Positions 22,241 through 44,232 are shown, numbered from the stretch's first letter. The stretch is DNA of 64,000 nucleotides from Terriglobia bacterium (GCA_965198225.1 CBDAOY010000007.1:192001-256000); one strand, 5' to 3'. The notes: generated by a model not told the origin, from the letters alone. Numbers and translations: made by a program.

Positions 22241-22249
22241 CAAACTGAA

Positions 22250-22806: not shown

Positions 22807-22984
22807 CCTGAATCACTTCCCTCGGCGGCAACCGGATTCACCACACTCTTCTCAAGCGTCACTTGTCCGAGACGCGCGATTCATTGAACTGACAGTTTGA
22901 TTGCTTCCAACTCCTTCCTCTCGTACTATTTACGCAAGTTTTTCCTGGACATGGCGAGGGAACGCCTGCGAGGCAGCGCGACCT

Positions 22985-25693
22985 ATGGCTCTCACGGCAG
23001 GTACACGTCTGGGTCCATACGAAATCGGCGACCAACTCGGTGCCGGCGGCATGGGAGAGGTGTATCGCGCCACCGACACCCGTCTGGACCGCACGGTTGC
23101 CATCAAAGTCCTTCCTGAACACCTCGCCGACGAACCGCAACGCCGGGAACGCTTCGAGCGTGAAGCCAAAGCCGTCAGCAGCCTGAACCATCCGCACATC
23201 TGCACGCTCCACGACGTGGGTGAACAGGACGGGATTCACTACCTCGTCATGGAGTACGTGGAGGGCGACACACTCCAGCAGCGTTTGGAGAAAGGCCGAC
23301 TGCCGCTGGATCAGGCCCTCGAATACGCCATCCAGATCGCCGACGCGCTGGACAAGGCCCACCGGCAGGGTGTGGTGCATAGGGATTTGAAGCCCGGCAA
23401 CATCATGATCACGAAGTCGGCAGGTGTGAAGCTCCTCGACTTTGGGTTGGCAAAGCTCAAAGGCGATGCCGATCAAGTCTCGCCGCTCTCTCAGATGCCC
23501 ACCCAAGACCCTTCAGCGCCCCTGACAGCAGAAGGCACGATCCTCGGCACGCTCCAGTACATGGCTCCTGAACAACTGGAGGGCAAGGAAGCCGATGCCC
23601 GGACGGACATCTTCGCATTCGGTGCGGTCGTCTACGAGATGGTCACGGGGAAGAAGGCGTTCGAGGGGGCGAGTCAGGCGAGTTTGATTGCGGCCATCAT
23701 GGATCATGAGCCGCAAGCGATGGCTGAGCTTCAGACCATGACGCCATCGTCGCTGGATCACATCGTGACGACATGCCTCGATAAAGATCCCGATATGCGG
23801 TGGCAGACGGCAGCCGACTTGATGCGCGAGTTGAAGTGGATAGAGGATGGAAACGCACAGGTCGGAACCGCTTCTATCGAAATTCCCTCAAAGAAACGCG
23901 AGCGTGTCGCGTGGTCCGCGAGCCTCGTTCTCCTACTTTCGACCCTTGGAGTCGCCTCCGTTGCGTTTTTCGGTAACGCACCACAGGAGCAGACGACATT
24001 CCGATTCTCTTTCGCCCATCCTTCGGAGGCTCGTGGAGACGTACTGACCGTCTCACCCGATGGCCAACGCCTTGCGTTTCTCGCGTCAAGCTCGACCGGT
24101 GCTCAAGCGGTGTGGGTCCGCGATTTCGAGTCCGGTGAGATGCGGATGCTGGCGGGTTCCGAGAATGCCACCGGATCTTTGTTCTGGTCGCCTGATGGAC
24201 AGGCCATCGGATTCTTCACTGTGACCGAGCTCAAGGCGGTGGATCTTTCTGGCGGTTCTCCTCGGACGGTGTCGCCCCAAGTCGCAAACAGGGGCGGCAC
24301 ATGGAACAAGGACGGGGAGATCATTTTGTCCCTAGGAGGAACGCTACAGCGCGTGTCGGCGGAGGGTGGCCAACCCACGCCGCTGGAGTTGTCGGGCGGG
24401 TTCCCGTACTTCCTGCCCGATGGGATTCATTTCCTTTATGAGTCCAGCTCTGGTCGCGGCCAGTCACTCGGACCTGGGCGACGCCAACTTGAGCCGTCTT
24501 CGATTTACGTGGCGTCTCTGGAATCCTCAGAAACGCGCCTTCTGTTGATTGCCGACCGCGATACCAAGGCTGCGTACGCGAGCGGGCATGTCCTGTTCGT
24601 GAGCGGGGGCGTGTTGATGGCGCAACCGTTTGACGTCGATAGCCTCCAGCTCAGGGGAGAAGCCCACCGAATCGGTCCCCAGGTGTCTTCTCCAGGGGTG
24701 GGGCACGGGGATGACATCCCGTTTTCGGTTTCGACCAACGGTATTCTCGCGTTTCGGTCCGGGAACCGCGTGGATGGACAACTCGTGTGGTTCGATCGTG
24801 AAGGAAACGAAACCCGACGGGTTCCTCAGCCACAGTCAGGCGAGTATCTGAACCCGTCCCTGTCCCCGAGCGGGCAACAGATCGCGGTGAACCGCAAGGA
24901 CCCGGCGACCGGGAATGTCGATATTTGGCTCATCGATATGGGAACGGATACACCGGATCCGCTCACCTCAACGGCATCGTTCGATGCCGACCCGGTCTGG
25001 TCACCCGACAGCCAGGAAATCGCCTTTTCGTCCTACCGGAACGGGAAGTGGGGCCTCTGGAAGAAGAATATCCGCACGGGCGAGGAAGAGCGTCTCTGGG
25101 AGGCTGCCGAGGGATCCGAGCCGAGAACCATGGACTGGTCGCCGGACGGAGAGTTCATTCTCTTCGACCTTCGAAGTCCAAACTCCGACCTCTTCGACCT
25201 TCGAGGTTCAAACTCCGACGTTTGGGTGTTGCCCGTTTCCGGGGATGATCCATGGCCGCTCCTGAACAATCCGAATATCTTCGAGTACGCCGCCCACTTT
25301 TCTCCAGACGGTGAGTGGGTCGCATACATCTCGAGTGAGGCCGGCGCGTTTAGCATCTACGTGGCGCGGTTCCCGGAGGGCACCGAGGGAGGACGGGTCT
25401 CGCTCGCTGGAAGTACTCATCCAAGGTGGAGGGGCGACAGAAGGGAGCTGTTCTACAAGGGCGGTTTTGGGAGCGCCCCGGTGATGGCGGTCCGTGTAGA
25501 GGCTGGCTCCTCGGGCCTTCAATTTGATAACCCAGTACCGGTTTTTGATTCGGTAATGTTAGGGATGTCGGACGGTCGGCACCACTATGCTGTGACTGCC
25601 GATGGAAACCGTTTTCTGCTGAGACGACCGAGCCTGGCCCCCCCACCTGTCACCGTCATCGTCAACTGGACTGCTGAACTGGAAAACCAATGA
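22985..25693 (+). CDS. Hanks-type Ser/Thr kinase + TM + TolB-like (PD40) beta-propeller
   Basis: [24 protein letters not shown] and YMAPE; TM segment; repeated (W/F)SPDG motifs. Confidence 0.92.
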
Positions 25694-25893
25694 ACCCCGG
25701 CACCCAACTCGGCAGCTACGAGATCCTCTCCCCGCTCGGCAAAGGCGGCATGGGATCGGTGTGGCTGGCGCGGGATGCGAAGTTGGGCCGGCAGGTGGCG
25801 ATCAAGACCCTGCCTGAAGAGTTCGCCAGAGACGCCGACCGTCTCGCCCGGTTTGAGCGTGAAGCCAAACTCCTCGCGTCGCTGAATCACCCA
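25690..25893 (+). pseudogene. Ser/Thr kinase N-terminal fragment
   Basis: [12 protein letters not shown]...GKGGMG...[12 protein letters not shown], after which homology is abruptly lost. Confidence 0.85.
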
Positions 25894-26026
25894 AAGCGGA
25901 TAAGCGATATAAGCAGGGGCTGACGACTATGGCAGCGCTGACAGTGCCGTCGTATAGGTCTTATGTAAATCCGCGGGCGGCCGCAGGCCGTCGCGCGAAA
26001 ATCCACTCACCCGCTCGCGCGGGAGA

Positions 26027-27280
26027 TCAAGCCAGGAGGGCTTTGACCCCGGCCACAGCGCGCGCGACGTGCTCCATCGTGTTGTAGACGTGGGGGCAAA
26101 GCCGGATGCCGCCCGTGCCGGCACCTGCAATCCCGTGCTCTTCATACAGACGGTTCAAGACTTCGCGGCTCTTCCCTCGCTCGAGTTCGACGATGCACAC
26201 GCCGCCCGAGAGCTTCTCGTCCTCGGGGGTCACGAGCGTGCGACCCGCATCGACGAGCCCGGCTTTGAGCGCCGTGGCGAGCTCCGTCATGCGTGCTTCC
26301 ATCTGAGCCGCGCCTATGGCGTTATGGAAATCCACCGTCGTGCCGATGGCCGCGAGACACGCGTCGTCACGCTGGCCGAGCGATTCGAATTTGCGGGCGC
26401 CTTTCGGATCGGGGTCGACGTCATCGCCCCATCCCGGCGCGACAACGTTCGGCCAAATACGCGCTATGTTTGACGCTTTCACATAGAGGATCCCCGCTTC
26501 TTTCGGCCCCATGAACCACTTGTGCGCCGAAGCAGAATAGGAGTCGCAGCCGATGTCGCGGAGATTCACATCGAGCGCCCCCCAGCTCTGCGCGCCGTCG
26601 ACGTGCACGTAAACGCCTTTTTCGTGCGCTGCCTCGACGATTTGTTTCGCGGGGAGCTTGATGCCGCTCACGTTCGAGACATGCGTAATCGAGAGAACCT
26701 TTGTCTCGTCCGAGAGTGCTTCGATGAAGGTGTCCACGAGCTCCTGGGAGCTCTTCGGGTGCTTCGGCGTCGAAACGCGTCTCACGGTAAGCCCGAAGCG
26801 CGCCGCCCTCACGTCCCAGGCAACGTTGTTCGTCGGGTGATTCTGGCTCCATAGCACGACCTCATCGCCCTCTTCGAGGTCGAGGCCGTTATTGATCATG
26901 TTGTTGGCCTCGCTCGTATTGCGCACGAGGGCGATCTCGTCAGCGGTGACGCCGAGCTGCTTCGCGACCTTCTTCCGTGACTCCTCACGGAGTCCACCGA
27001 ATTTTCCTCGATTGTTGAACGAGCAGTCGCGGTCGATATCCGCAGTCAACTCCGAGACCCGCTCCGCGACGGCGCGTGAAGACGGACACAAGTTGGCGGC
27101 GTTCATCGGCACTCTTTCCTCGCTGAAAGAAAACTGGGCGCGCACGAGATGCCAGTAGGCTTCGCCCTCGACCGACGTTTCCGCGAGCGCCGACGCCTCG
27201 GCCTCATTGGATTTGAGGGCGATGGGTAGAAGTGCCGCCGAGGCGGCGAATTCTTTGAGAAAGGACCGGCGAGAGTTCAT
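26027..27280 (-). CDS. Tat-signal class V PLP-dependent aminotransferase (isopenicillin N epimerase/cysteine desulfurase-like)
   Basis: SRRSFLK signal; RNTSEA, HVDGAQ and SAHKWFMGPK (PLP lysine). Confidence 0.88.
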   Translation of the reverse strand: MNSRRSFLKEFAASAALLPIALKSNEAEASALAETSVEGEAYWHLVRAQFSFSEERVPMNAANLCPSSRAVAERVSELTADIDRDCSFNNRGKFGGLREESRKKVAKQLGVTADEIALVRNTSEANNMINNGLDLEEGDEVVLWSQNHPTNNVAWDVRAARFGLTVRRVSTPKHPKSSQELVDTFIEALSDETKVLSITHVSNVSGIKLPAKQIVEAAHEKGVYVHVDGAQSWGALDVNLRDIGCDSYSASAHKWFMGPKEAGILYVKASNIARIWPNVVAPGWGDDVDPDPKGARKFESLGQRDDACLAAIGTTVDFHNAIGAAQMEARMTELATALKAGLVDAGRTLVTPEDEKLSGGVCIVELERGKSREVLNRLYEEHGIAGAGTGGIRLCPHVYNTMEHVARAVAGVKALLA

Positions 27281-27419
27281 GGAGCCTCCTTCGATCAGAC
27301 CAGTAGCGATCGTAGCCAGGATGATACCGCATTTGTCACGCCGGCTGATCTGCCGTGCTGGTTCCCGCGAGTTTTGAAAACGCGATCAGTAGTGCAACCT
27401 CAGAGGCTGGGGACACTCG

Positions 27420-27949
27420 TTTCTCAGACGAGATGGTGTCGACGACATATGCATCACCGGAGACTGATAAACAGGAGCCCTTCGCTTCGGCACCTGGTTC
27501 ACGCCAAGCGGGAGCGTCGTTCTCGCCTAGCGGAGAGTGGCTCGCCTACCATTCGCAAGAACTAAGGTTCAACGAACTGTACGTCCAGGCGTTTCCGTCA
27601 AATGGCACTCAGCACGCCCACTTTGGAAGAGCTGCCGACCTATCCGATCTGGTCGCAGGACGGTCGTCAGCTTATTTTTCGACCTTCGGCCATTTTGGGA
27701 AGGAGTTTGTTGACCGTTATCGATGTCACGACAGACCGTGGCGTTCCAGAATTCGGGCCTCCCGAGGGGCTTCCCGTGCAGGACTTCCTTACGTTCCCGT
27801 TTTTTCGGAGCTACGACATTCTTCCCGATGGGCAGAGATTCGTCGTCGTCATGCCCGAAGAAGCAGGCGACGGCGGACCGAGGTCCTCACGGATCAATGT
27901 CTGTCAGAACTGGACCGAAGAACTGAAGGAACTCGTGCCGGTTCCATGA
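27420..27949 (+). pseudogene. C-terminal propeller fragment of a kinase gene (frameshifted)
   Basis: FSPSGEWLAY, PIWSQDGRQL and YDILPDGQRF; ends NWTEELKELVPVP like the neighbouring kinases. Confidence 0.8.
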
Positions 27950-28074
27950 CCTCCTGTCACCCGAGTCCGCAACTCTGGAGAGCTCCGGGAAGCGATTGTT
28001 CAGTTTTGTTCAGTCGAGCGAGGCATCGGGTTCGCCCGCGCACGCCCGAACCAGTCGTCGTCAACGGGTTGAAC
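27950..28074 (+). repeat. Left arm of the att-like repeat (copy G), truncated
   Basis: CGATTGTTCAGTTTTGTTCAGTCGAGCGAGGCATCG matches 32776-32811 and 43224-43259. Confidence 0.8.
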
Positions 28075-28105
28075 TGAACCGCCCCGGGAATCCCGGGGCG
28101 GTTCA
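28075..28105. mobile_element. 31-bp palindrome resembling two fused IS3-family (IS629/IS6110-type) ends
   Basis: TGAACCGCCCCGGG-AAT-CCCGGGGCGGTTCA; TGAACCGCCCCGG is the terminal motif of IS629/IS6110. Confidence 0.55.
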
Positions 28106-28183
28106 CTTTCACCCTTCGTTCCTATTGAGAGTCGGGTTGACTACCACTACGAGACGACGAGAGGATGGAGCCCAGGAGACACC

Positions 28184-28825
28184 TCAGCCCTCGTCGTCAT
28201 CGTCATCATCGTCGTCATCATCATCATCGTCATCATCGAAGCCGAGGATCGCATATCCTGACAGAGGTGCGAATGGGACAGTTGGATCACCAGTGAATCC
28301 CCCTGCCATGATCGAGTACAGACCTTCCAAGCCATCCTCTCCGTCAGAGAGCATGAACGAGCACGCCGCTCTAACCGAGGGTGTCGAGGCATTTTCGAAG
28401 ATAACGCAGTCACCACTGAAATCGGACTGACCTGGCGCTGAGTCTAGTACCGTGCCCGTGAAAGTGCCACGCCCTTGATACGTACCGGCACCGCCGGGGA
28501 ATGGTCCGGAAATGATCACCAACTGTTCCAGCTCTAATTGTCCGCTAATGTCTCCTGCAATCTCCCAAGTGGCAACTGTGTGTATGACGGTGTCTCCATG
28601 TTCAGTGATCATAGAACTTACGACGGTGCCTCCCAGGGGCCGAGCCTGCGCGCTCACGGGACTCAGTGGTGTGATCGCTGGGTCATCCGAGGCTCTGACC
28701 GTCGTCAAGCTTGCGAGCAGCACGATCGACGCTATTACTGCCATGCAAGGTATTGGCAGACGTTTTGTGATTAGAGGTTGAGGAGAAGCCAGGTTCATCG
28801 GTTTGGTTTTCTTTGCTTGTAGCAT
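28184..28825 (-). CDS. Secreted beta-rich hypothetical protein with poly-Asp tail
   Basis: RBS AAGGAGG, hydrophobic signal, and C-terminus GF-D14-EG; divergent from the ECF sigma gene. Confidence 0.65.
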   Translation of the reverse strand: MLQAKKTKPMNLASPQPLITKRLPIPCMAVIASIVLLASLTTVRASDDPAITPLSPVSAQARPLGGTVVSSMITEHGDTVIHTVATWEIAGDISGQLELEQLVIISGPFPGGAGTYQGRGTFTGTVLDSAPGQSDFSGDCVIFENASTPSVRAACSFMLSDGEDGLEGLYSIMAGGFTGDPTVPFAPLSGYAILGFDDDDDDDDDDDDDDDEG

Positions 28826-29233
28826 TGATCCCTCCTTCAGGAACCATGAAAGTTCAGACGTTGCGCTAGTGCTAGTCTTCGCGGCCCTCACCGATTAAGG
28901 CGGGAATTGTGATGGAAAACTCCAACGGGATCAGAGAAATCTCTGGAAATCGCCCGAGAGTGGGAGGGGCAATTTTGGTGCCAGCTAACCGAAGCGTTAC
29001 TTCATTGAAACGGAAGACGATGTGATTGGCTTCTTACCAACCCTTCCAAGGACCAATCTACGGATTTTCTATGTCCATTTCCGTTGATGAAGCTTCGGAC
29101 ATCGGTTGACTTTTGATCTTCTCTGACCCGCTGGCGCTTGATACCTGGCTCCTCTCAAGCAACGTTTCCTGTAATGTCCTGAAGCTGTGTGCTAACTTGA
29201 GGTTACATTCAGACCGACGGTGCAAACGCTCAC

Positions 29234-29818
29234 ATGCCGGTACGATCCCACCAGGATGCGACGCAGTTGCTTCACGCCTGGGGTGAAGGCGACAAGAGCG
29301 CACTGGAGAAGCTGACACCTCTCGTCTACAAAGAGCTGCACCGGTTGGCCCGACACTACATGCGTGGGGAACGGCCCGACCACACTCTTCAAACCACGGC
29401 TCTCGTTAATGAAGCGTATGTGCGCTTGATCGATTGGAAAAATGCGCGCTGGCAGAACCGAGCGCATTTCGTGGCCGTTGCCGCGCAGTTGATGCGGCGC
29501 ATTCTGGTGGACCATGCGCGCTCACGGCACTACGCCAAACGGGGCGGTGGAGCGCAGCGGGTGTCGCTGGACGAAGTCGCGCTGGTATCGGAGAAACGGG
29601 CTCCGGAGGTGATTGTGGTGGATGATGCCCTGCGCCGCTTGGATGCCATCGATCCGCGCAAGGCGCAGGTGGTGGAGCTACGGTTTTTTGGGGGGCTCAG
29701 CGTGAAGGAGACCGCGGAGGTGTTGAAGGTCTCCCAGCAGACCGTCTTCCGTGACTGGGATCTGGCTCGCGCGTGGCTGCATCGCGAGATCAGCGAGAAG
29801 GATGACGATGAAGCCTGA
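29234..29818 (+). CDS. ECF sigma factor, kinase-associated (TIGR02999/ECF43-like)
   Basis: LVYKELHRLA, HTLQTTALVNEAY, MRRILVDHAR and VELRFFGGLS motifs; overlaps the downstream kinase. Confidence 0.9.
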   Translation: MPVRSHQDATQLLHAWGEGDKSALEKLTPLVYKELHRLARHYMRGERPDHTLQTTALVNEAYVRLIDWKNARWQNRAHFVAVAAQLMRRILVDHARSRHYAKRGGGAQRVSLDEVALVSEKRAPEVIVVDDALRRLDAIDPRKAQVVELRFFGGLSVKETAEVLKVSQQTVFRDWDLARAWLHREISEKDDDEA

Positions 29819-32734
29819 ACGCTGGGAGCTAATCGAGAAGCTGTACCAGGCCGTTGTCGAGCGGCCGCCGGGCGAGCGGGCGGCCTTTCTGGAGGAAGCT
29901 TGCGCCGGTGACGAAGAGCTCCTGCGTGAGCTGGAGTCGTTGCTGGAGCACCGAGAACAGGCCGGATCCTTTATGAAGGCCCCCGTCGTTGACCAATCGG
30001 CGGGATCATTTGGAGAAGATTCCGTCGGATCGTCAGGTAACAAGGACAGCTCGATAGTCGGCAAGACCATCGCTCATTACAAGGTCCTGGCAAAGCTCGG
30101 TGAGGGCGGGATGGGAGAGGTGTGGAAAGCCCGCGACGAAAAACTCGGTCGTGAAGTTGCCCTCAAGACGCTCCCGGAGGAGTTCGCCAAGGATGCGGAA
30201 CGCCTGTCCCGGTTGGAACGCGAGGCGAGGCTGCTGGCGTCGTTGAACCATCCCAACGTCGCGACGATCCACGGGCTGGAGGAACGCGGAGGAACACGAT
30301 TCCTCGTCCTGGAACTCGTCGAAGGCGACACGCTCGCGGACCGGCTCAAGGGAGGAGCCATCCCCGTCGAAGAATCCCTCAAGCTGGCCCTCCAGATTGC
30401 CGAAGCCCTCGAAGCCGCGCACGAAAAAAGTGTCATTCATCGGGATCTGAAACCCGCCAACATCAAAGTCACTCCCGACGGCAAGGTCACGGTGCTCGAC
30501 TTCGGGTTGGCGAAGGCGTTTGCGGGGGATGGGGCGGATGTGAACCTGTCCCAGTCACCCGCGTTGAGTGCGGCTACCCAGCCAGGGGTCATTCTGGGAA
30601 CGGCAGCGTACATGTCCCCGGAGCAGGCACGGGGACAGGAAGTCGATAAGCGCACCGACATTTGGGCGTTTGGATGTGTCCTGTACGAGATGCTGACGGC
30701 TCGCCGCCCATTTCGTGGGGAGACGCTCTCCGACATCGTCGCCAAGATTCTCGAAAGCGGGCCGGACTGGAGCAGCCTGCCTGCGAACACCCACGCGAAG
30801 ATTCGCGAACTACTCGAACGTTGCCTCGACAAGGACGTCAAGGCTCGGTGGCACGACATCGCCGACGTGCGGGTGGACATTCAGAAGGTTCTTGCTGATC
30901 CAAGCGGCGTGATAGTCCGGCCGGTTGCCGATGAGCTTCAGGCACCGCAGAAACCAACGCCGCGGTGGGTCTGGGCCGCCGTCGCACTGGCGGCGATCGT
31001 AGCCCTCATCGCGACTTTGAACCTGCAACCCGACGCGCCAACTCCCACCGTCGTGCGGTTTTCGCACCGCCTGCCCGCCGGGCAAGCGTTCACCGCCGCT
31101 AGCCCTCAGACTACCCGACGACTGATCGATGTCTCCCCGGATGGTTCCACCATCGTGTACGCGGCAAACGGCGAGCTGTGGATCCGAGATGTCGGTTCCG
31201 AGGAGGTGCGCCCAGTTTCGGGGACTCAGGAGAACTCGCGCCACCCGATCTTTTCACCGGACGGCGAATGGGTAGCGTACTGGGCCGACGGCCAACTCAA
31301 GAAGGTTCAGACCGCCGGTGGGACTCCGGTGGTGTTGTGTGATGCAACGAATCCCACTGGTTGGGATTGGGCTGGAGACACGGTTTTCTTCGGCCAAGGC
31401 GACCGGGGAATTATGAGCGTTTCGTCGAACGGAGGTACACCGGTGGTTGTTGTTGCGGAGGGCGGATGGGGTCCCCGAATGCTGCCCGGCGGCGAAGTCT
31501 TGATGTTCCATCGGATGTCGGCCGAGTCGTCGAGCGGGTTCCAGATATGGGCGCAAACGTTGGAGACAGGTGAACAGACGCTTCTCGTCGAGGATGGCCG
31601 GGCGCAAGGGTACGCTTCGACTCGACATCTCATCTATTTTCTGGACGCCGCGATCTTTGCGGTGCCATTCGACGCTCAAAACCTAGAGGTTTTGGGCGGA
31701 CCCGCGTCGGTAATCGAGAACGTGAGCCGACTGGAGATCCCACAATCTGTGCCGCACTTTAGCCTATCCGACAACGGCACGATCGCTTACATCTCCAGCG
31801 AAAACGCATCCCTGGAACGAAGCCTGGTTTGGGTGGACCGTGACGGACGCAATACGGTGCCACTCGGTGCCGACCCTGCCGACTACGGCCTCCCGCGCAT
31901 TTCGCCGGAGGGGACTAAGGTTGCGGTTGAAATCCTCGCAAGAGGTGATCGTCACATATGGGTGTATGACCTTGAAAGAGAGTCATGGAGCCAGTTCACC
32001 TTCGAAGGCTCCAGCCGGGTGAGCGGAGATAGGGGGCCTGTCTGGACTCGGGACGGTAGCAGAATTGCTTTCATGTCAGACCGGCAACCGCCGAACGACA
32101 TTTATTGGAAACCGGCGGATGGCAGCGGCGAGGCCGAACTGCTCCTGGAACAAGATTTCCACCTGGTACCGGTCTCGTGGTCCCCGGACGACGATGTCCT
32201 GGCGTTTTATCTCATCGACCCGGAAACGCAACGAGACATCTGGACTCTTCAAGTGAACGATGCCGCGGCAAAGCCGGAACCTTTTCTCGCTGGCCCAGCC
32301 GATGAAAGAGCCCCAGCGTTTTCACCGGGTGGCAATTGGATCGCTTACGTTTCAGATGAGACGGGGCGGGACGAAGTTTGGGTGAAACCGTATCCAAGCA
32401 CGAGTGGAGGCCAGCGACGGATTTCGACCGGGAGTGTCGAGCCCGTGTGGTCGCATGATGGCCGAGAATTATTCTTCCGCACGATCGAGGGGGACATGAT
32501 GGCGGTACAGGTGGACGTCGGCACACCCTTCACATTCGAGCCGCCTCGAAAGCTCTTCGACGGACGTATATGAACTTTGAGGATCCCTCTCAGCGAGGAG
32601 TGCAAACATACGATGTTCATCCGGACGGAGATCGTTTCCTGATGGTTACAGAGCCACAAGAACAGATCAGCGAAAGGATCCACATCGTCGTGAACTGGTT
32701 TCAAGAGCTGAAAGAACGCGTGCCGGTGCCATGA
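29808..32734 (+). CDS. Ser/Thr kinase with ECF-partner N-terminal extension + TolB-like propeller; frameshift near 32565
   Basis: PERWELIEKLY...RAAFLEEACAGDEELLRELESLL extension and kinase motifs. The C-terminus ...YDVHPDGDRF...NWFQELKERVPVP* continues in another frame to 32734. Confidence 0.88.
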
Positions 32735-33095
32735 TCTTCTCGTCTGAGTCGCGAACCCTGCAAGGTTCTGGGAACCGATTGTTCAGTTCTGTTCAGTCGA
32801 GCGACGCATCGGACTCGTTGCCAACCCGCAAACACGTCGTGGTGAACGGTGGAGTGGGTCAAAAGAGATGGAATGAGCCCCTGTTTGACCACAGGCGCTC
32901 ATCGGACTTGACGCTCGTTTAGAAATAGCTGATACTAAAGGCCTTACCGAAGGGATCGTAGCTCAGTCGGAAGAGCGCCTGCTTTACACAACAACTCAAA
33001 CACACCATCTTGTTGGTTCTTCGTGCCTGTTGGTTGGGTCAGGGCATGGTGTTACATGGTATTCGGCAGAAAATTGTTCAGTAAATTGTTCAGTC
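32735..33095 (+). repeat. Full att-like repeat copy B (left arm, promoter, tRNA-Val 5' half, right arm)
   Basis: TTGTTCAG/CTGTTCAG pair at ~32779-32796; TTGACG-N17-GATACT; tRNA half at 32952-32989; two AATTGTTCAGT. Confidence 0.9.
32952..32989 (+). pseudogene. tRNA-Val(TAC) 5' half only
   Basis: GGGATCGTAGCTCAGTCGGAAGAGCGCCTGC TT-TAC-AC followed by non-tRNA sequence. Confidence 0.85.
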
Positions 33096-33283
33096 GGCCT
33101 TAAAGCAGGGTCATTCTTATTCGCGGCAACCGGACTCACCGCACTCGTCTCAAGGCGCCATTTGTCCGATACGCCAGTTTCACCTACCCGACACTTTGAT
33201 TGCTTCCAACTCCCACCTTTCGTAGTATTTACGCAAGTTTTTCCTGATCATGGCGAGGGAACGCCTGCGAGGCAGCGCGGCCT

Positions 33284-36082: not shown

Positions 36083-36084
36083 CG

Positions 36085-36117
36085 ATGATTCCCGGCACCC
36101 AACTCGGCAGCTACGAA
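36085..36117 (+). pseudogene. 11-codon remnant of a kinase start ([11 protein letters not shown])
   Basis: CCCGGCACCCAACTCGGCAGCTACGA is identical to the start of the 25690 fragment. Confidence 0.7.
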
Positions 36118-36161
36118 CCCACTTTTCCCCGAGTACGATTCGCGTGCAGCAGGAGGAATCC

Positions 36162-37781
36162 ATGAACCGTAGAGAGGTATTGGCCGGTCTGTTGGCCGCG
36201 GCAGCGTTTGGCCCTGATGCTTGTGGCACAGCCTTTGCAGAGGCCCAACAGGAGAACGCGTCGTTCGATCCGAGGACTCCACGCCCGCTGCGGTCGCCGA
36301 CCCTGCGTGAATTCCGTGCGATCGCCGAGGACTACGGGCTGGAACTTACCGACAGTGAACTCAACGTGTACCTGGAACGCATGAAACCTCAACTGGCTTC
36401 CTTGCGGAAGCTGGAGCAGATGGCCGAGCCGACTTTGCCCGTGAAGTACCCACGAACACCGGGCTACCGGCCAAAACGGGAGGACAACCCGCTTAACGCG
36501 TGGTTCTGGAAATGCTCCATCAAGGGGGCCTCGAGCGGATTGCTGGCCGGCAAGAAAGTGGTCGTCAAGGACACGTATTGTGTTGCAGGGTTGCCTCTGA
36601 CCAACGGTTCAAGCGTCTTGGATGGATTCGTTCCCAACGTCGACGCGACGGTGGTGACCCGGATTCTCGATGCTGGCGGCGAGATCGTCGGCAAATCAGT
36701 CTGCGAGGCGTTTTCATTTTCTGGAGGCAGCCACACTTCAGACACCGGCCCAGTAGTAAACCCCCACGACCGAACCCGCTCGGCCGGGGGTTCCTCAAGC
36801 GGAAGTGGGGCTCTTGTGGCCGCCGGCGAAGTCGACATCGCGACGGGAGGCGACCAGGGCGGATCGATCCGCATTCCCAGTTCCTGGTGCGGGATCTTCG
36901 GTCTCAAGCCGACCTACGGTCTGGTGCCGTATACGGGCATTTTCCCCGGAGAAATGACCATCGACCATACAGGGCCGATGGCCCGGACGGTCGAGGATTG
37001 CGCGCTACTGCTCGAGTCGGTCGCAGGACCGGACGGTTTCGACCCGCGACAGTGGGAACGCCGCGAGGGCGAAACCTACAGCCAGATGCTGACCGGAGAT
37101 GCCCGTGGACTTCGGTGTGGCGTTCTCAAGGAAGGGTTCGGGCGGCCGGAGGGGGAGACAGATGTCGACAATTTGGTCCGCGAGGCAGCAGAGCGGCTCA
37201 CGAGGACTGGGGCATCGGTCACCGAGGTTTCTGTTCCGATGCATCTGGAGGCCGCTGCAATATGGTCCGGCTTGAATGCGGGAGTCCTGCACCTCATGGA
37301 GAGCGGTGCGGTTGGAACGAACTGGCAGGGATTCTACCTGACGCAGTTAGTGGATGCTCTGGGGGCGCGAATGAAGGAGCGCGCAAACGACTGGCCTCCG
37401 AATGTCAAAGGATACATGCTCGGCGCCCGTTGGGTGCGAGACAACTATCACGGGCGTCATTATGCCAAGATGCAGAACATGAGAGGCGTTCTGCGAGACG
37501 CGTACAACCACGCCTTCGATGAGGTCGACCTGTTGGTCCTTCCGACGATTCCGATGAAAGCAACGCCCATACCGCCACCCGACGCGGATCTGAACCAAGT
37601 TGTCGAGCGCGCCGAAGAAATGTCCGGGAACACTTACCCATTCAATTTATCCGGCCACCCGGCAATGAACGTGCCCTGCGGCATGTCGGAAGGCCTCCCG
37701 GTCGGGATGATGCTCGTTGGACGACATGGGGAGGACGGGACGGTTCTACGAGCCGCCCATGCTTTCGAGCAACTCGGGTGA
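36162..37781 (+). CDS. Tat-signal amidase-signature family enzyme
   Basis: RBS AGGAGG; NRREVL signal; VKD, GGSSSGS and GGDQGGSIRIP (Ser-cisSer-Lys triad) motifs. Confidence 0.9.
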   Translation: MNRREVLAGLLAAAAFGPDACGTAFAEAQQENASFDPRTPRPLRSPTLREFRAIAEDYGLELTDSELNVYLERMKPQLASLRKLEQMAEPTLPVKYPRTPGYRPKREDNPLNAWFWKCSIKGASSGLLAGKKVVVKDTYCVAGLPLTNGSSVLDGFVPNVDATVVTRILDAGGEIVGKSVCEAFSFSGGSHTSDTGPVVNPHDRTRSAGGSSSGSGALVAAGEVDIATGGDQGGSIRIPSSWCGIFGLKPTYGLVPYTGIFPGEMTIDHTGPMARTVEDCALLLESVAGPDGFDPRQWERREGETYSQMLTGDARGLRCGVLKEGFGRPEGETDVDNLVREAAERLTRTGASVTEVSVPMHLEAAAIWSGLNAGVLHLMESGAVGTNWQGFYLTQLVDALGARMKERANDWPPNVKGYMLGARWVRDNYHGRHYAKMQNMRGVLRDAYNHAFDEVDLLVLPTIPMKATPIPPPDADLNQVVERAEEMSGNTYPFNLSGHPAMNVPCGMSEGLPVGMMLVGRHGEDGTVLRAAHAFEQLG

Positions 37782-37825
37782 CACGACAGGTCCTTCGGAA
37801 AATAAGGGGGTTGGACACGGAGAAA

Positions 37826-40528
37826 ATGATCGGCAAAACGCTCGGTCACTACGAGATCACCGACAAGCTCGGTCAGGGCGGCATGGGATCGGTGTGGCTG
37901 GCGCAGGATTCGAAGCTGGGTCGGCAGGTCGCGATCAAGACCCTCCCGGAAGAGTTTGCACAGGACGAAGAGCGCCTGGCCCGGTTTGAACGGGAAGCCA
38001 AACTGCTGGCATCGTTGAACCACCCGAACATTGCCGCCATCTACGGACTGGAAGAAGACACCGGCACCCGCTTCCTTGTTCTGGAACTCGTCGAAGGTGA
38101 CACGCTTGCAGATCGGTTGAAGCGCGGTGCCGTCCCTGTCGAAGAATCCCTCAAACTCGCCTTGCAGATCGCAAAAGCCCTCGAAGCGGCGCACGAGAAG
38201 GGTGTCATCCACCGGGACCTGAAACCCGCCAACATCAAGGTCACATCCGAGGAGAGGATCAAGGTTCTGGACTTCGGGTTGGCGAAGGCGTTCGCGGGCG
38301 ATGGTGCCGATGCGAGCCTCTCAAATTCACCAACCCTGAGCATGGCGGCAACGCAACAGGGGGTGATTCTCGGTACCGCAGCCTATATGAGTCCTGAGCA
38401 GGCGAGTGGCGAAGCGACTGATAAGAGAGCCGACATTTGGTCCTTTGGTGTCGTCCTGTTTGAACTGCTGGTCGGACGACAGGTATTCACCGGCAGGACG
38501 GCCTCCCACGTGATGGGGGCAGTCCTGAACATCGAACCAGACTGGAACAGTTTGCCTCCGAATCTCCATCCTCGACTCCGATTGCTTCTTGAACGCTGCC
38601 TGGAAAAGGAGGCCAAGGACCGGGGCCACGACATTGCCGACGTGCGCGTGGATATTCAGAAGGTGCTCGCTGATCCCAACGGGGTGATGGTCCAGGAGGC
38701 TGCCGAAGTCCGGGCGTCGCGACCACCCCTTTCCTGGGTCGCACTCACAGCCGTTCTCAGTATGGCCCTCGTTGGAGTCACAGTCTGGAACATGAGGCCG
38801 ACAGCTCCACCTGACGCGGGACCAATCAGCCGCTTCGACTACCAACCGCCCGAAGGACTGCAGTTTGGAAACCCCGGGGGATCTCTAGTCGCAATTTCAC
38901 CCGACGGTCGTCACTTCGCCTACAACACCGCCGGCGGTCTCTACTTGCGCTCAATGGACGAACTTGAGGCCAGACTCCTCCCCGAAACCCAGGCAGGTGT
39001 CGCTACTCCGGTGTTCTCACCGGACAGTCGATGGATTGCGTACTGGTCCCAAACAGACGCCCAACTGAAAAAGATCGCCGTCGGTGGGGGTGCGCCCGTG
39101 ACCCTGTGCGATGCCGTCAGGCCTGATGGGGTGAGCTGGACAGTAGACGACACGTTACTGTTCGGTCGCCGCAACCAGTTTTCCACAGAGGGAGCCGCGA
39201 TCATGCGGATTTCCTCGAATGGAGGAACCCCAGAAGTACTAATCGAGGCTAGAGAAGGCGAACTGGTCTACGGGCCCCAGTTACTGCCCGATGGAGAGTC
39301 CGTACTCTTCACCGTGACGCGCGACACTGGGCCAACGCGGTGGGACCGGGCCCAGGTTGTCGTGGACTCGTCGGAATCGGGTGAGCGAAGGGTTCTGTTT
39401 GAGACCGGCAACGACGCGCGCTATGTGCCGACAGGCCATCTCACTTATGCGATTGACAATGTGCTGTTTGCAGTTCGGTTTGACGTTGTTGGCCTAGAGG
39501 TCGTTGGAGGTAGCGTTCCGGTCATTGAGGGCGTCGGGAGGGGTAGTTATCCGGGTCAGGCACGAGCCGCCGCGCACTATGGTTTCTCCGACAGTGGGAC
39601 GCTTGTATATCTCAGCGGAGGGGGGGGCTCACGCGATCCGAATCTGCTGCTTGTGGATCGTGAGGGGATCCCCGTCTCGGTGACGGATGACCGGCGCGAC
39701 TACGACGCCAACAGGATGTCCCCGGACGGTCAGAAGATCGCCGTTGGCGTAGTCTCGGTGGGAGAAAGCGACATTTGGGTCTATGACTTGCAGAGTGGGA
39801 CTCCGAGCCAGCTGACGGAGACCGACGGCAGGGAAAAGCGTTTTCCGACCTGGAGCCCAGACGGTTCGATGGTTGCGTTTACGGCGGACGGAGACATTTA
39901 CTGGAAGAAGGCGGACGGCAGCGAAGAAGCCGAGTTGTTGTGGGACGGCGAGTACCCCATCGATGATTACATGTCTTTCTCTTCGGACGGCAAGTACCTG
40001 GCCTTAGCCGAGCGTGGTGAGAACAAATCCAGCATATGGGTGCTATCAATGGAGAACCGGACGGCGGAGCCATTCCGGAATGATCCCGGTTCGGTATACC
40101 GCCCGATTTTTTCTCCAGATGGAAAGTGGATCGCCTACGACACCAATGAGTCCGGACGCGCGGAGGTGTGGGTCGCGCCATTTCCGGGTCCGGGGAGCAG
40201 AATTCAGGTTTCAACGGATGGAGGTGCGTTTCCGATGTGGTCTCCTGACTTGGGAGCGTTGTTCTTTCGGGGAGGTCCAGATAGCCAGGAGATCTGGGTG
40301 GCTCGAATCAAGCCCGAACCCTCTTTCAGCAGAAACGATCCGGCGGTCCTGTTCCGGCTCGACTTCCCGTTCCATGTTAACGACATCGATCCGGACGGCG
40401 AGCGGTTCCTGATGTTGGGGCTTGGGGATAGCGCAGGGCAGACTGGGGACACCGCCGCGCCAAGACAGGACATCATCATCGTCCAAAACTGGTTCGAGGA
40501 ACTGAAGGAACGGGTGCCTGTTCCATGA
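37826..40528 (+). CDS. Ser/Thr kinase + TM + TolB-like propeller
   Basis: GQGGMG, HRDLKPAN, DFG and YMSPE; ends NWFEELKERVPVP. Confidence 0.92.
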   Translation: MIGKTLGHYEITDKLGQGGMGSVWLAQDSKLGRQVAIKTLPEEFAQDEERLARFEREAKLLASLNHPNIAAIYGLEEDTGTRFLVLELVEGDTLADRLKRGAVPVEESLKLALQIAKALEAAHEKGVIHRDLKPANIKVTSEERIKVLDFGLAKAFAGDGADASLSNSPTLSMAATQQGVILGTAAYMSPEQASGEATDKRADIWSFGVVLFELLVGRQVFTGRTASHVMGAVLNIEPDWNSLPPNLHPRLRLLLERCLEKEAKDRGHDIADVRVDIQKVLADPNGVMVQEAAEVRASRPPLSWVALTAVLSMALVGVTVWNMRPTAPPDAGPISRFDYQPPEGLQFGNPGGSLVAISPDGRHFAYNTAGGLYLRSMDELEARLLPETQAGVATPVFSPDSRWIAYWSQTDAQLKKIAVGGGAPVTLCDAVRPDGVSWTVDDTLLFGRRNQFSTEGAAIMRISSNGGTPEVLIEAREGELVYGPQLLPDGESVLFTVTRDTGPTRWDRAQVVVDSSESGERRVLFETGNDARYVPTGHLTYAIDNVLFAVRFDVVGLEVVGGSVPVIEGVGRGSYPGQARAAAHYGFSDSGTLVYLSGGGGSRDPNLLLVDREGIPVSVTDDRRDYDANRMSPDGQKIAVGVVSVGESDIWVYDLQSGTPSQLTETDGREKRFPTWSPDGSMVAFTADGDIYWKKADGSEEAELLWDGEYPIDDYMSFSSDGKYLALAERGENKSSIWVLSMENRTAEPFRNDPGSVYRPIFSPDGKWIAYDTNESGRAEVWVAPFPGPGSRIQVSTDGGAFPMWSPDLGALFFRGGPDSQEIWVARIKPEPSFSRNDPAVLFRLDFPFHVNDIDPDGERFLMLGLGDSAGQTGDTAAPRQDIIIVQNWFEELKERVPVP

Positions 40529-43182
40529 TCGGCAAGACGCTTGGCCACTACGAGATCACCGACAAGCTCGGCCAGGGCGGAATGGGGTCGGTCTGGCTGG
40601 CGCAGGACGCGAAGCTAGGGCGTCACGTCGCCATCAAGACCCTACCCGAAGAGTTCGCCAAGGACGAAGAGCGCCTCGCTCGGTTCGAGCGTGAAGCGAA
40701 ACTTTTGGCGTCGCTGAATCATCCTAACATTGCGACCATCCACGGGCTGGAAGAAGACAACGGCACCTGCTTCCTTGTCCTCGAACTCGTCGAAGGCGAC
40801 ACGCTGGCGGACCGGCTGAAACGCGGTGCGATCCCAGTTGAGGAAGCCCTCCAACTCGCTCTCCAGATCGCCGAAGCACTCGAAACCGCGCACGAAAAGG
40901 GCGTCATTCACCGCGATTTGAAGCCCGCCAACATCAAGGTCACTCCCGAAGGAAAGATCAAGGTGCTGGACTTCGGGTTGGCGAAGGCGTTCCAGGGAGA
41001 TGGGGCGGACGTGAACCTGTCGCAGTCGCCCACGTTGAGCATGGCTGCGACCCAGCAAGGTGTCATCTTAGGCACTGCGGCATACATGTCGCCCGAGCAG
41101 GCGAGAGGGCAGGAAGTCGACAAGCGGGCCGATGTGTGGGCTTTCGGATGTGTTCTCTACGAGATGTTGGCAGGTCGGCAGCTCTGGGAAGGACCGACTG
41201 CAACGGACATGATCGCGGCGGCGATTGCGAAAGACGCTGACTTCAGCACCCTGGCCCCGAGTGTCGATTCCAAGATTCGCGAATTGTTGCAGCGGTGCCT
41301 CCAAAAGGACCCTCGAAACCGGCGACAGTCCGTCGGAGATGTCCGCGTCGACCTTCAGGCTTTAATGGAGCGGGCGGACACTCCAACACAACTTGAAGCA
41401 CTTTCTCTTGGAGGCCGTCGCCGGATAGTGTCTGCGACTTTCGTTCTCTTTCTTGTCGCCGTTGCCATCGCCATATCCGTTATGTCGTACGTCGGTAGCC
41501 GAGAACCGACACGAATGGAAGTCTTCCGACTGACGTCCTCACTATCCCACACTCTCGACCTCGGATCGGCGGAACGTCCGGCCCTAGCAATTTCCCCTGA
41601 TGGTTCCCGCCTCGCCTACGTAGCGGACGGTCAACTGTATGAACGGCCGATGAACCAGTTCGTAGGCCGAGCAGTCCCGGGTTCTGAAGGTGCCTACTCA
41701 CCGTTCTTCTCGCCGGACGGGGAATGGGTCGGGTTCTTCGCCGATAACAGGCTTAAGAAGATCGCGTTAGACGGTGGATTGCTCCAGGAAATCTGTACCG
41801 CCCAATTTGTGCGCGGTGCCGTGTGGGTGGGTGATGAGATCATCTTTGCGCCAGATTTTGGCATTCATGGCTTGTCTCGAGTCTCAAGTTCTGGTGGTGA
41901 ACCATCAAGCTTCACCCTCGTAAAGACTGATGTCGGCGAATCTCGGCACGCTTGGCCGAGCCGGTTGCCAGGCCGTAACGGGATCCTCATGACCGTCAAC
42001 GTGGGTGATGAAGCACAGCAGAACTACAACTTGGCGGCGGTGTCTCTGGAAACTGGTGAGCGGACACTGATAATGGAGGAGGGTGGGCCAAGCGAGTATT
42101 TGCCGACTGGACATCTAGCGTATGTGCGCGGTGGTCAGCTCATGGCGGTTCCCTTGGACCCGGATCGTCTCGAAACTGTCGGAATGCCTTCTCTGCTTGT
42201 AGACAACGTGATGCAGCACACGAGGTCCGGTGCGGCGCAGTTTTCGGTGTCGGCGTCCGGATCCATGGCGTTCATCCCAGGGGGATTGGTTCACTCCCAG
42301 TACCGGCTTGTCTGGGTGACGCGGGATGGAGTGACTGAACCCCTCAATCTACCACCCAGAAACTACGTCCAACCGCGGATTTCCCCCGACGGCACGCGCC
42401 TGGCAACAGGAATCCAGGAGGATCGTTTCGACGTTTGGGTTTACGACATTCGCAGAGGGATCGGAGATCGCGTGACCGTTGATGGTGACAACCGCAGCCC
42501 GATCTGGGCACCAGATGGAGAAACGATTGTGTTCTGTTCCGAACGGGACGGAGTCTGGGACCTGTACCGAATATCGTCCACGGGCGGGCCGTTGGAGAAA
42601 ATTACCCCGGCAAGTCGCGATGAACCGTGGTTTCTCCATCCTGAGTCATGGTCAACAGACGGCAAGGTGCTGTTCTGTACCGGTCTTACGGAGACGATCG
42701 TCGATTCGATCTGGACTCTTGCCCTTGACTCTGGCTTGGAACCGCTTGTGGGGGACACATCGCTCGAACGCGGCGCTCCTGCGCTCTCTCCCGATGGAAA
42801 CTGGATAGCGTATGCCGCGGAAGGGATCGATCAACAGCAGGTATTCCTTCGCAAGTACCCGGAAAGTGGGGAGCGTCACCTAGTCTCCGCGGATGGTGCT
42901 CGGGAGCCATTGTGGTCCCCCGACGGCGAACAACTGTTCTACCGTTCGGGCGACAAGATGATGAGCGTCGAGATCAAGACGACACCCGAGCTTGACATAG
43001 GAATACCTACCGTTTTGTTCAGCGGGAGCTACGGCTCGAGACCCGCGTTCCGACCGAACTACGACATCACCCCGGATGGGGACCGGTTCCTTATGACTCT
43101 GTCGGACGATCCGGGCGTAACTGAGATCAACATCATCTTAAACTGGTTCGAAGAACTGAAGGAACGGGTGCCGGTGCCATGA
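40525..43182 (+). CDS. Ser/Thr kinase + TM + TolB-like propeller
   Basis: ATGA overlap with the previous gene; same kinase motifs; ends NWFEELKERVPVP. Confidence 0.92.
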   Translation: MIGKTLGHYEITDKLGQGGMGSVWLAQDAKLGRHVAIKTLPEEFAKDEERLARFEREAKLLASLNHPNIATIHGLEEDNGTCFLVLELVEGDTLADRLKRGAIPVEEALQLALQIAEALETAHEKGVIHRDLKPANIKVTPEGKIKVLDFGLAKAFQGDGADVNLSQSPTLSMAATQQGVILGTAAYMSPEQARGQEVDKRADVWAFGCVLYEMLAGRQLWEGPTATDMIAAAIAKDADFSTLAPSVDSKIRELLQRCLQKDPRNRRQSVGDVRVDLQALMERADTPTQLEALSLGGRRRIVSATFVLFLVAVAIAISVMSYVGSREPTRMEVFRLTSSLSHTLDLGSAERPALAISPDGSRLAYVADGQLYERPMNQFVGRAVPGSEGAYSPFFSPDGEWVGFFADNRLKKIALDGGLLQEICTAQFVRGAVWVGDEIIFAPDFGIHGLSRVSSSGGEPSSFTLVKTDVGESRHAWPSRLPGRNGILMTVNVGDEAQQNYNLAAVSLETGERTLIMEEGGPSEYLPTGHLAYVRGGQLMAVPLDPDRLETVGMPSLLVDNVMQHTRSGAAQFSVSASGSMAFIPGGLVHSQYRLVWVTRDGVTEPLNLPPRNYVQPRISPDGTRLATGIQEDRFDVWVYDIRRGIGDRVTVDGDNRSPIWAPDGETIVFCSERDGVWDLYRISSTGGPLEKITPASRDEPWFLHPESWSTDGKVLFCTGLTETIVDSIWTLALDSGLEPLVGDTSLERGAPALSPDGNWIAYAAEGIDQQQVFLRKYPESGERHLVSADGAREPLWSPDGEQLFYRSGDKMMSVEIKTTPELDIGIPTVLFSGSYGSRPAFRPNYDITPDGDRFLMTLSDDPGVTEINIILNWFEELKERVPVP

Positions 43183-43546: not shown

Positions 43547-43629
43547 GGTTGGCAGACGCCACCGACCCCAGTCACGACGTTGACCGGGTGCCTCTCTCCC
43601 TCTGACGGCGAAGAACCCGATTTGTCTTC

Positions 43630-43646: not shown

Positions 43647-43656
43647 TACTGGTGCC

Positions 43657-44159: not shown

Positions 44160-44232
44160 GCCTGTCCTGCAAATCCCTACGTCAAACGACTGTCCGCGGG
44201 ACTCGAGTTTGACCTGAAAATATAACGATCGC

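Follow-up and report, generated by a model that had tools for sequence, protein, structure and literature searches.

A receptor-kinase family with recombining paralogs probably overlaps an array of tRNA-Val island remnants in a Terriglobia genome

How do neighboring receptor kinases of one bacterium come to combine an almost identical kinase domain with very different sensor domains? This question is raised by a 64,000-nucleotide stretch of the genome of a Terriglobia bacterium (GCA_965198225.1, CBDAOY010000007.1:192001-256000; hereafter the window), in which five long plus-strand genes, termed A, K2, B, K4 and K5, were recognized by open reading frame (ORF) listing and Pfam scans and were found to have a common architecture consisting of a kinase domain, one hydrophobic helix and PD40 repeats. 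According to the original prediction, the conserved flanks of these genes serve as anchors for the swapping of sensor domains carried on mobile cassettes. The explanation that we favor, with a probability of about 0.7, is that two ordinary things overlap at this locus, a recombining family of receptor kinases and an array of element remnants at a tRNA-Val(CAC) gene. Positions given without a prefix are those of the window, C1 to C9 are contigs of the same genome, C7 being the one that holds the window, and the coordinates of the features are collected in Table 1.

The leaders and kinase heads of A and B had been described as shared and nearly identical up to the peptide SQASLIAAI (codons 23672-23698 in A and 33971-33997 in B), and this was borne out by a leader identity of 85.7% over 161 nt and a protein identity of 96% upstream of SQASLIAAI. 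When the DNA of both genes was compared in 60-nt windows, the identity was 82-100% from ~22840 to 23680 (~33978 in B), 58-63% for the next ~180 nt and about 40%, i.e. random, from ~23860, that is, it was non-uniform and collapsed after SQASLIAAI. The ectodomains that follow the transmembrane helix are 20% identical in the family alignment, and a BLASTP comparison between them gave only out-of-register matches of PD40 blades (best E 6e-08); to call the two propellers unrelated is fair at the sequence level, though both are PD40-repeat proteins. On their 3' side, A and B are again accompanied by a homologous piece, a 39-nt start of a next kinase (25683-25721 versus 36078-36116, 87%).

Separate trees of the kinase domain and of the propeller were built with the 35 full-length members of the family ('quick' LG+G4). 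In the kinase tree, A and B, whose domains are 90% identical, are sisters (93 in the Shimodaira-Hasegawa-like approximate likelihood ratio test, SH-aLRT) within a clade of nine sequences (99). In the propeller tree, A groups with C6_32720 and C9_778818 (100), and B groups with two genes of C4 (99). With the propeller data, the approximately unbiased (AU) test rejected the A+B grouping (p 0.0029), and with the kinase data it rejected the groupings of the propeller tree (p 0.0001 and 0.009); the two trees are therefore incongruent with AU support. The closest relative of A also changes three times along the gene, since at the DNA level it is B at 22855-23380 (87-98%), a locus at C9:1194k at 23380-23680 (88-95%) and C9:752-754k or C6:292-294k at 23755-25700. 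In a maximum chi-squared analysis, the fraction of B-like informative sites was 37 of 48 to the left of the switch and 45 of 117 to its right, a contrast equaled in its extremity by 1 of 2000 permutations, and this switch lies inside the kinase head. Kinase A is a mosaic gene.

A and B are not a singular case. We collected the 80 pairs of family members whose heads are at least 85% and whose ectodomains are at most 50% identical, and the identity at their four-fold degenerate sites was 0.51 in the head, 0.40 in the C-terminal end of the kinase domain, 0.30 in the ectodomain and 0.63 in the C-terminal tail, with 0.29 expected by chance; codon identity ranked the segments in the same way. These values bear on the simplest alternative, an old duplication of the genes under unequal constraint and with no recombination, heads and tails being purified and ectodomains relaxed or diversifying. 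Such a history agrees with the identities over all 595 pairs of members (median 58% for the kinase domain versus 31% for the ectodomain), with an identity drop whose position is common to most pairs, as expected of a boundary of constraint, and with a tail that is a conserved protein motif. However, it predicts an even saturation of synonymous sites, which is at odds with the four-fold-site values and with a synonymous divergence (dS) between A and B that is 0.73 for the kinase domains but reaches saturation downstream. Nor does it account for the AU-supported conflict of the trees or for a best-matching partner that switches inside the head, and it makes impossible the reversed pair C6_302054_304765 and C6_985563_988298, 684 kb apart, in which the propellers are the young part (dS 0.15, 82% identity) and the kinase domains the older one (dS 0.73). 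Since this pair joins a young propeller to an older head, exchange runs in both directions. Neither congruent trees nor a uniform synonymous divergence, which together would have spoken for plain duplication, was found, and we regard that alternative as improbable.

Exchange within the genome is in agreement with the relationships of the heads. The head of A is 89% identical to those of three paralogs of its own genome (G000) and at most 84% identical to the heads in two genomes of the same genus, and the genome labels on the head tree required 4 changes for G000 versus 8.2 after shuffling, with 1 of 500 shuffles as low. Taken together, these results indicated that recombination among the paralogs is real and consists of a family-wide homologous exchange. 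Several points have to be set against this reading. The groups submitted to the AU test were named after the trees had been seen, B sits on a very long branch (2.57), and the clustering of the heads by genome is just moderate (supports of 80-92). Codon selection, or a signal in the RNA or its translation, could account for part of the extra matches at four-fold sites, and the A/B drop at SQASLIAAI may in part mark where protein constraint changes and not where a crossover took place. The identity of 61 of the 80 head-alike pairs changes at residues 210-236 of K5, as it does in A and B, so that the boundary at SQASLIAAI is a property of the family and not peculiar to this pair; it is either the limit of constraint in the kinase fold, or the place at which conversion tracts end together with the homology, or both.

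A literature search for gene conversion in kinase domains gave no bacterial receptor-kinase case among the matches listed, which is no proof that none exists, and a search for PD40 kinases in Acidobacteria found nothing related. The Ser/Thr kinase paralogs of the acidobacterium Candidatus Solibacter usitatus Ellin6076 are described, in the excerpts of the paper on them, as mostly less than 50% identical over their full length and, on average, not under positive selection (PMC3174227). The genome studied here resembles that one in having many Ser/Thr kinase paralogs, although the terms 'WD40', 'TolB' and 'beta propeller' occur 0 times in that paper (PMC3174227), and the contrast between head or tail and ectodomain, the mosaic genes and the conflict of the trees, which are observed here for this genome only, are not mentioned in those excerpts (PMC3174227). 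The nearest parallels are eukaryotic: in mammalian TLR1/TLR6 (PMC2077338) and in a plant LysM receptor-kinase cluster (PMC5694491), as far as the excerpts of both papers go, the signaling part is likewise homogenized and the ligand-facing part diverges. Unlike those clusters, the family described here is bacterial and has dozens of copies in operon-like, overlapping arrays.

In the whole genome, 110 ORFs matched the five window kinases and 90 matched K5, of which 44 have both kinase and propeller parts. All five window genes matched Pkinase (PF00069; E 7.7e-51 to 1.5e-55, 173-189 bits against a cut-off of 31.7) and PD40 (E 2e-17 to 4e-28), and all have a hydrophobic 19-mer after the kinase domain (residues 301-425, score 2.0-2.8). 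By these matches, the genes are predicted to encode Hanks-type receptor Ser/Thr kinases with a cytoplasmic kinase domain, a single transmembrane helix and an outward-facing PD40/TolB-like ectodomain, which would sense a periplasmic signal and phosphorylate cytoplasmic targets. The structural model of the K5 ectodomain is all-beta (mean predicted local distance difference test score, pLDDT, 85.7; predicted template-modeling score, pTM, 0.78), and Foldseek placed tandem propellers first (LRP6 E3E4, E 4e-17) and found TolB with an E of 2e-14, at TM-scores of about 0.3; the model thus assigns a predicted beta-propeller fold to K5, the one ectodomain so assigned. The original prediction counted five intact kinases, and four of them are intact (A, B, K4 and K5). 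The fifth, K2, is frameshifted, a single shift near 32565, real or due to an assembly error, putting its conserved tail out of frame.

Two other observations concern the family elsewhere in the genome. The kinase head at C1:7419-10214, on a contig of 17 kb, is identical to the head at C6:164348-166330, and the presence of C1 in the assembly may be redundant. An element of ~2.5 kb that encodes a 313-aa tyrosine recombinase is present in 9-10 genome copies of 99-100% identity (C9:776018-778535, 790978-793498, 764317-766822 and 815098-817607, C4:26879-29361, C7:943944-946450 and others), several of which either start 43-110 nt past the stop codon of a family kinase or are located between tail and leader sequences; the remnant of a Y2 transposase at 50171-50722 (-) may be of the same kind.

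The ectodomain of B stands apart, since its DNA (~34000-36080) has no match anywhere else in the genome and its best match among 39 relatives is 29% identical over residues 1-432. At 35555, within this unique ectodomain, 8 nt are missing in the contigs of two public runs from one sample, a lack that would shift the frame relative to the window. Upstream of the coding sequences, a conserved block of about 60 nt within 22887-22984 recurs at 33 other loci (e.g. C9:1193579, C4:4335 and C6:143202), with the sequence ..GTTTGATTGCTTCCAACyCCTTCCT..CGTAGTATTTACGCAAGTTT.., followed in many copies by GGCGA.GGAACGCC. Many copies of this 34-locus block lie directly 5' of family kinases, and it may be a dedicated regulatory site or a leader RNA; it matched neither the sigma-70 consensus nor Rfam. 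The leader of A was also considered as a promoter, a reading that is not supported, as a scan for the sigma-70 consensus gave no site and the spacing typical of extracytoplasmic function (ECF) sigma factors did not fit by eye.

Is the 3' end of the kinases part of a repeat that could act as an attachment (att) site? Four conserved tails (27890-27951, 32675-32736, 40469-40530 and 43123-43184) are indeed present, and three of them abut, within ~10 nt, the left arm of a repeat (arms starting at 27963, 32746 and 43194), both as the original prediction had it. The motif NWFEELK..VP occurs in K2, K4, K5 and the fragment at 27890, A has the variant NWTAELENQ, and B lacks the motif and ends in ...SSFDGRQ, so that neither A nor B closes with the 42-nt tail. 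However, the proposal that the kinase 3' end belongs to the att repeat did not hold. A 62-nt tail query gave 44 blastn matches on six contigs (C4-C9), 40 of them outside the locus discussed here, and a motif search found 36 tails in the genome. Moreover, a ..NWFEELK..VP.. tail closes 119 of the 120 best public homologs of the K5 ectodomain (39-45% ectodomain identity), which are annotated as 'protein kinase' or 'Tol biopolymer transport system component' and among which two of the listed names are acidobacterial. In the AlphaFold model of K5, the tail forms the last beta-strand (567-572) and a short C-terminal helix (574-581). The tail is a protein motif, NWFEELKERVPVP, the C-terminus of the whole kinase family. 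At least nine tails continue directly into ATGATCGG.AAGAC, the start of a next kinase, and the stop at VPVP often overlaps the ATG of that kinase (..CCATGATCGGCAAGACG.., ATGA, at least nine cases), an overlap that would add a constraint at the nucleotide level. The three tails that abut an arm have in common ~45 nt of downstream sequence found after no other tail, which makes them copies of one ancestral junction; as junctions that were copied and not captured independently, they are no evidence for a tail within the att site.

The repeat itself is a promoter-like site and the 5' half of tRNA-Val(CAC), flanked by arms with TGTTCAGT repeats. The alignment of the copies runs from the promoter-like site into GGGATCGTAGCTCAG..CTTCACAC, the tRNA half up to the anticodon loop; at 43357-43385 the promoter-like site reads TTGACG-17-GAAAAT and lies 16 nt upstream of the half. 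The 38-39 nt of the half are identical or nearly identical to the intact tRNA-Val(CAC) gene, and the similarity stops in the anticodon loop. The window contains 18 occurrences of TGTTCAGT versus 1.23 expected, a number reached in 0 of 100 shuffles, and it is paired in either arm and again at the integrase gene's 3' end; the copy h1 lacks the left-arm pair. ARAGORN found 0 tRNA genes in the window, which means that the halves are not callable tRNAs. A scan of the whole window with the Rfam gathering thresholds gave 0 matches, and 0 inverted repeat pairs of at least 30 nt were present in 16000-48000. The left arm was also tried as a remnant of an integrase 3' end and rejected, as only ~25-30 nt, the TGTTCAGT pair, are common to it and the real integrase end.

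The surroundings of the repeat are those of a tRNA island. An intact tRNA gene has four 5' halves, all in the same orientation (+), upstream of it, and a tyrosine integrase gene lies within the island and adjoins the tDNA, ending 43 nt before it. Upstream of the integrase gene are an insertion sequence (IS) transposase, an ArdC-ankyrin gene, a VirB11-like ATPase and a coupling-protein-like gene. The copies of the repeat are spaced by 10,922 and 10,451 nt and delimit units of 10.6, 10.1 and 0.65 kb (22174-32746, 33096-43194 and 43547-44197) that have no integrase, hold kinases, an aminotransferase, an amidase and small genes only, and have the structure of cis-mobilizable elements (CIME). The members of the tandem do not each carry an integrase, since a single PF00589 match was found in C7:212-259 kb, at 259123-259626. 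We conclude that the locus consists of island remnants without integrases, arrayed in tandem at a tRNA gene. A further integrase fragment was found at C5:901749-902261, which is 63% identical to the tRNA-Val integrase over the C-terminal 171 residues of the latter. The fragment adjoins a tRNA-Asn gene (C5:902302-902375, -) and faces its 3' end, which is the usual arrangement and contrasts with the 5'-side arrangement at tRNA-Val.

Table 1. Features of the kinase genes, the tRNA-half repeat and their surroundings. Unprefixed positions refer to the window.
Feature	Position	Strand	Remarks
Right (b) arm remnant	20898..20950	+	directly 3' of an alpha/beta-hydrolase gene; blastn match to C7:212898-212956
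Copy h1 of the repeat	21910..22174	+	promoter-like site, tRNA half ~22030-22067 (1 mismatch), b arm with two TGTTCAGT
DUF433 and DUF5615/PIN-like gene pair	22250-22477, 22474-22806	+	Pfam E 1.5e-23 and 5.5e-37; toxin-antitoxin-like
Leader of kinase A	22825..22984	+	3' 90 nt are part of the 34-locus upstream motif
Kinase A	22985..25693	+	Pkinase, transmembrane helix, PD40 ectodomain, variant tail NWTAELENQ; mosaic gene
N-terminal fragment of a second kinase, 68 codons	25690..25895	+	ATG overlaps the stop of A (ATGA)
Class-V aminotransferase	26027..27280	-	Pfam E 4.4e-46; separates the two halves of a broken kinase
Decayed C-terminal propeller fragment	27355..27951	+	PD40 motif 27520-27549, tail 27890-27951
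Left (a) arm remnant	27963..28072	+	TGTTCAGT pair; no tRNA half after it
Kinase K2	29751..32736	+	ORF stop at 32573; own conserved tail 32675-32736
Copy h2 of the repeat, complete	32746..33096	+	a arm, promoter-like site, tRNA half ~32953-32990 (2 mismatches), b arm
Leader of kinase B	33123..33283	+	85.7% identical to 22825-22984
Kinase B	33284..36082	+	head A-like to ~33997; ectodomain ~34000 to 36080
Amidase	36066..37781	+	Pfam E 1.6e-91; at the place expected for a second kinase
11-codon remnant of a kinase start	36085..36117	+	87% identical to 25683-25721
Kinase K4	37826..40528	+	tail NWFEELKERVPVP; stop overlaps the K5 start
Kinase K5	40525..43182	+	with tail; ectodomain model all-beta
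Copy h3 of the repeat, complete	43194..43547	+	tRNA half 43402-43439 identical to the intact tRNA
Small ribbon-helix-helix (RHH, CopG-like) gene between h3 and h4	43657..43914	+	Pfam E 5.7e-4, under the curated cut-off
Copy h4 of the repeat	44197..44461	+	tRNA half ~44317-44354, 1 mismatch
b-arm remnant	50765..50855	+	TGTTCAGT pair; adjoins the Y2-transposase remnant 50171-50722 (-)
Conjugation-type genes	59226..62425	+	coupling-protein-like 59226-61466, VirB11-like ATPase 61463-62425; ArdC-ankyrin gene from 62675
Tyrosine integrase, 411 aa	C7:258484-259719		Phage_integrase E 4.5e-21; 2.5 kb past the window end
Intact tRNA-Val(CAC)	C7:259763-259836	+	ARAGORN on the genome; 3.8 kb past the window end

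The structure of the array can be compared with two descriptions of islands. In the accretion model of ICESt1 and its CIMEs from the streptococcal literature, integrase-less units bounded by att sites stand beside a complete element, according to the excerpts of PMC5704250. As in that model, the array has an intact target and an integrase at one end and att-bounded units that contain neither integrase nor transfer genes, and the conjugation-type genes are in the tRNA-proximal unit; unlike it, the piece displaced here is the 5' half with the promoter-like site and not a 3' end, so that the array grows upstream of the tRNA, and the units carry receptor kinases and metabolic genes (PMC5704250). 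Among the 3919 islands of Islander, the excerpts of the source report 159 with a 5' tDNA fragment, 2083 anticodon-centered sites and 4 tandems of at least three (PMC4383910). The locus agrees with the Islander islands in the common orientation, the 5' fragments upstream, the end of similarity in the anticodon loop and the adjacent tyrosine integrase, and differs from its tandems, as they are described there, in that each tandem member has its own integrase and here one integrase serves four or five fragments (PMC4383910).

We infer that the array arose by site-specific accretion and not by unequal crossing-over, and that it may be mobile at the present day. The strongest competitor is a tandem segmental duplication, by unequal crossing-over at paralogs or repeats, after one ancient integration at tRNA-Val and with no later accretion. 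Here, too, part of the evidence counts against our explanation. Units 1 and 2 are of similar length, as the repeat spacing indicates, and both start with a leader and an A-type head and end with a tail and a left arm; a single integrase is present for at least five units, and the three tail-arm junctions were copied from one. By contrast, the tRNA halves (0-2 mismatches in 38 nt) are better kept than the arms (75-85% alike), which fits with halves that once functioned or that a site-specific exchange restored. Other genera, with different neighbors around the repeat, have the same arms and the same sharp end in the anticodon loop, the unit of 0.65 kb bounded by two copies recurs with a spacing of ~1 kb in another genome (G015), and the arm remnants without a half at 20898, 27963 and 50765 suggest several independent decay events. 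Duplication alone is thus a serious but rather unlikely account of the array.

Outside this genome, pieces made of a half and an arm are present in four other genomes of the bacterial family, which belong to other genera (G015, G021, G016 and G006). G015 has a pair of such pieces ~1 kb apart, like h3 and h4, and a kinase N-terminal fragment ~350 nt from a b arm. It also has a left arm upstream of an intact tRNA-Val gene with no kinase upstream and no integrase in the 20 kb examined, and that arm could be native upstream sequence of the tRNA, a further point against our explanation. In the same genome, left-arm and half copies with one intact tRNA-Val (C41:894444-901737) lie 1.3 Mb from half and right-arm copies in the opposite orientation (2214682-2215870), an arrangement as expected after a large inversion between att copies. 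Synteny with two complete genomes of the same genus was too scrambled to place the left border of the island; in genome G002, homologs of C7:174.6-197 kb lie ~13 kb upstream of tRNA-Val.

Could the repeat nevertheless have driven the exchange of sensors, with leader and head on one side and the 42-nt tail with att on the other acting as dedicated anchors for site-specific propeller swapping on mobile cassettes, in the manner of an integron or a shufflon? The three tails that abut the left arm with the same ~45-nt junction, the middles of A and B that differ although the heads before them and the 39-nt pieces after them are homologous, the kinase fragment near a b arm in G015 and the excess synonymous identity of head and tail would all agree with such a system. 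However, the tail is a deeply conserved protein end, as its matches outside the locus and in the public homologs indicate, the A/B pair itself does not end in it, the junctions with the arm descend from one ancestor rather than from independent captures, and the left arm of G015 has no kinase upstream. The repeat, with its arms around a tRNA half, is no cassette site, and all 8 of its blastn matches in the genome are at this locus. The other 21 kinase arrays of the genome have no copy of it, and kinase arrays are not significantly enriched near tRNA genes (5 of 22 within 5 kb versus 2.9 expected, P 0.15), which argues against mobile cassettes as the driver. Public runs that contain part of 32400-34400 comprised 13 rows, none of them RNA. 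In the contigs of four public runs (23600-43590), which are too short and too often interrupted at repeats to carry weight on this point, neither joints between repeat copies, in excised or recombinant form, nor alternative middles between the same flanks were found; the same absence has to be set against our own explanation as well. Near-identical sequence is present in public metagenome contigs of three studies, and these contigs break at the conserved kinase and tail segments; the sides of the joints listed are short (20-45 nt), and paralogs or other organisms are their probable source.

Integron cassettes are likewise repeat-bounded units of one orientation handled by a tyrosine recombinase. 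Here, unlike in integrons, the boundaries are direct repeats of a tRNA half with arms instead of attC hairpins, the units are multi-gene, 0.65-10.6 kb long and provided with their own leaders, and the recombinase has a phage-integrase SAM-like N-domain and adjoins a tRNA gene, and the units are therefore not cassettes of that type. Taken together, site-specific swapping on cassettes appears very improbable. Of the original proposal that the flanks anchor the swapping of sensors, one part stands, the constant ends being of more recent ancestry than the middles, and the site-specific cassette mechanism is unsupported. The repeat is a scar of the tRNA island that is unrelated to the exchange among the kinases and happens to bound kinase genes.

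Some further features of the window deserve mention. The DUF433/DUF5615 pair lies between the b arm and the leader in unit 1 and has no counterpart in unit 2, and 33 nt of the DUF5615 gene (22551-22583) recur without a mismatch at 17874-17906. The PD40 motif and the tail of the propeller fragment at 27355-27951 are in different frames. At 17936-19705, an FHA-domain gene and a SpoIIE/PP2C-type phosphatase gene are followed by a 13-codon remnant of a kinase Gly-loop (19667-19705), a signaling triad whose kinase was lost. A gene for a HipA-like kinase toxin (44576-46179, -; Pfam E 1e-48) has a helix-turn-helix gene upstream, and at least three toxin-antitoxin-like modules (HipA-like, DUF433/DUF5615 and the RHH gene) are among the island units. 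Finally, a 978-aa open frame at 55626-58562 (+), in a stretch of 69% G+C, has the C-terminal third of a DDE transposase at its start, followed by domains of the cadherin-like and fibronectin-III types, and probably represents a fusion brought about by an insertion.

The favored explanation starts from what is directly observed, namely the anatomy of the locus, the family-wide distribution of heads and tails, the conflict of the trees and the synonymous-site pattern. The family would evolve by duplication, fast divergence of the ectodomains and repeated homologous recombination or gene conversion among paralogs, an exchange that would keep alike the leader and the first ~215-235 kinase codons and, less so, the last ~13 codons. 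B would be an old and very divergent member that received its present leader and head from an A-like gene at a distance of 10 kb, either by being overwritten or by an exchange, the direction of this transfer being the less certain part. In the array, a tyrosine-integrase element would cross over in the anticodon loop of the tRNA gene, bringing its own promoter-like site and tRNA 5' half, and each new insertion would push the previous half upstream. The four displaced halves with their arms would thus bound the units, the last of which keeps the conjugation-type genes and the integrase, and the kinases would be cargo or bystanders.

A stronger version, in which head and tail act as homology anchors in a selected, ongoing re-assortment of ~90 gene segments and the att-bounded units add a route between genomes, is unlikely. 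The features that could point to it are the sharp boundary seen throughout the family, the low synonymous divergence of leader, kinase head and tail, and the saturated ectodomains. If it were true, new or foreign double-propeller sensors would be placed under a standard promoter and kinase module, the family would be a bacterial counterpart of the diversification of plant receptor-kinase or nucleotide-binding leucine-rich repeat (NLR) clusters, and the neighboring integrase would move modules between genomes.

Neither the kinases nor the island overturn present understanding. The locus is a clear example of the rarer kind of tRNA island in which a 5' half and a promoter-like site are displaced, here in a tandem of four, and annotation pipelines should take such repeats neither for novel att cassettes nor for tRNA pseudogenes. 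As for the kinases, the pairs with similar heads and different sensors, such as A/B and C6_30007/C6_37243, are a concrete set for studies of ligands or phosphorylation. Because head and tail are kept alike by exchange and the sensors are free to diverge, the results suggest that the ectodomains are the units of adaptation in this family.

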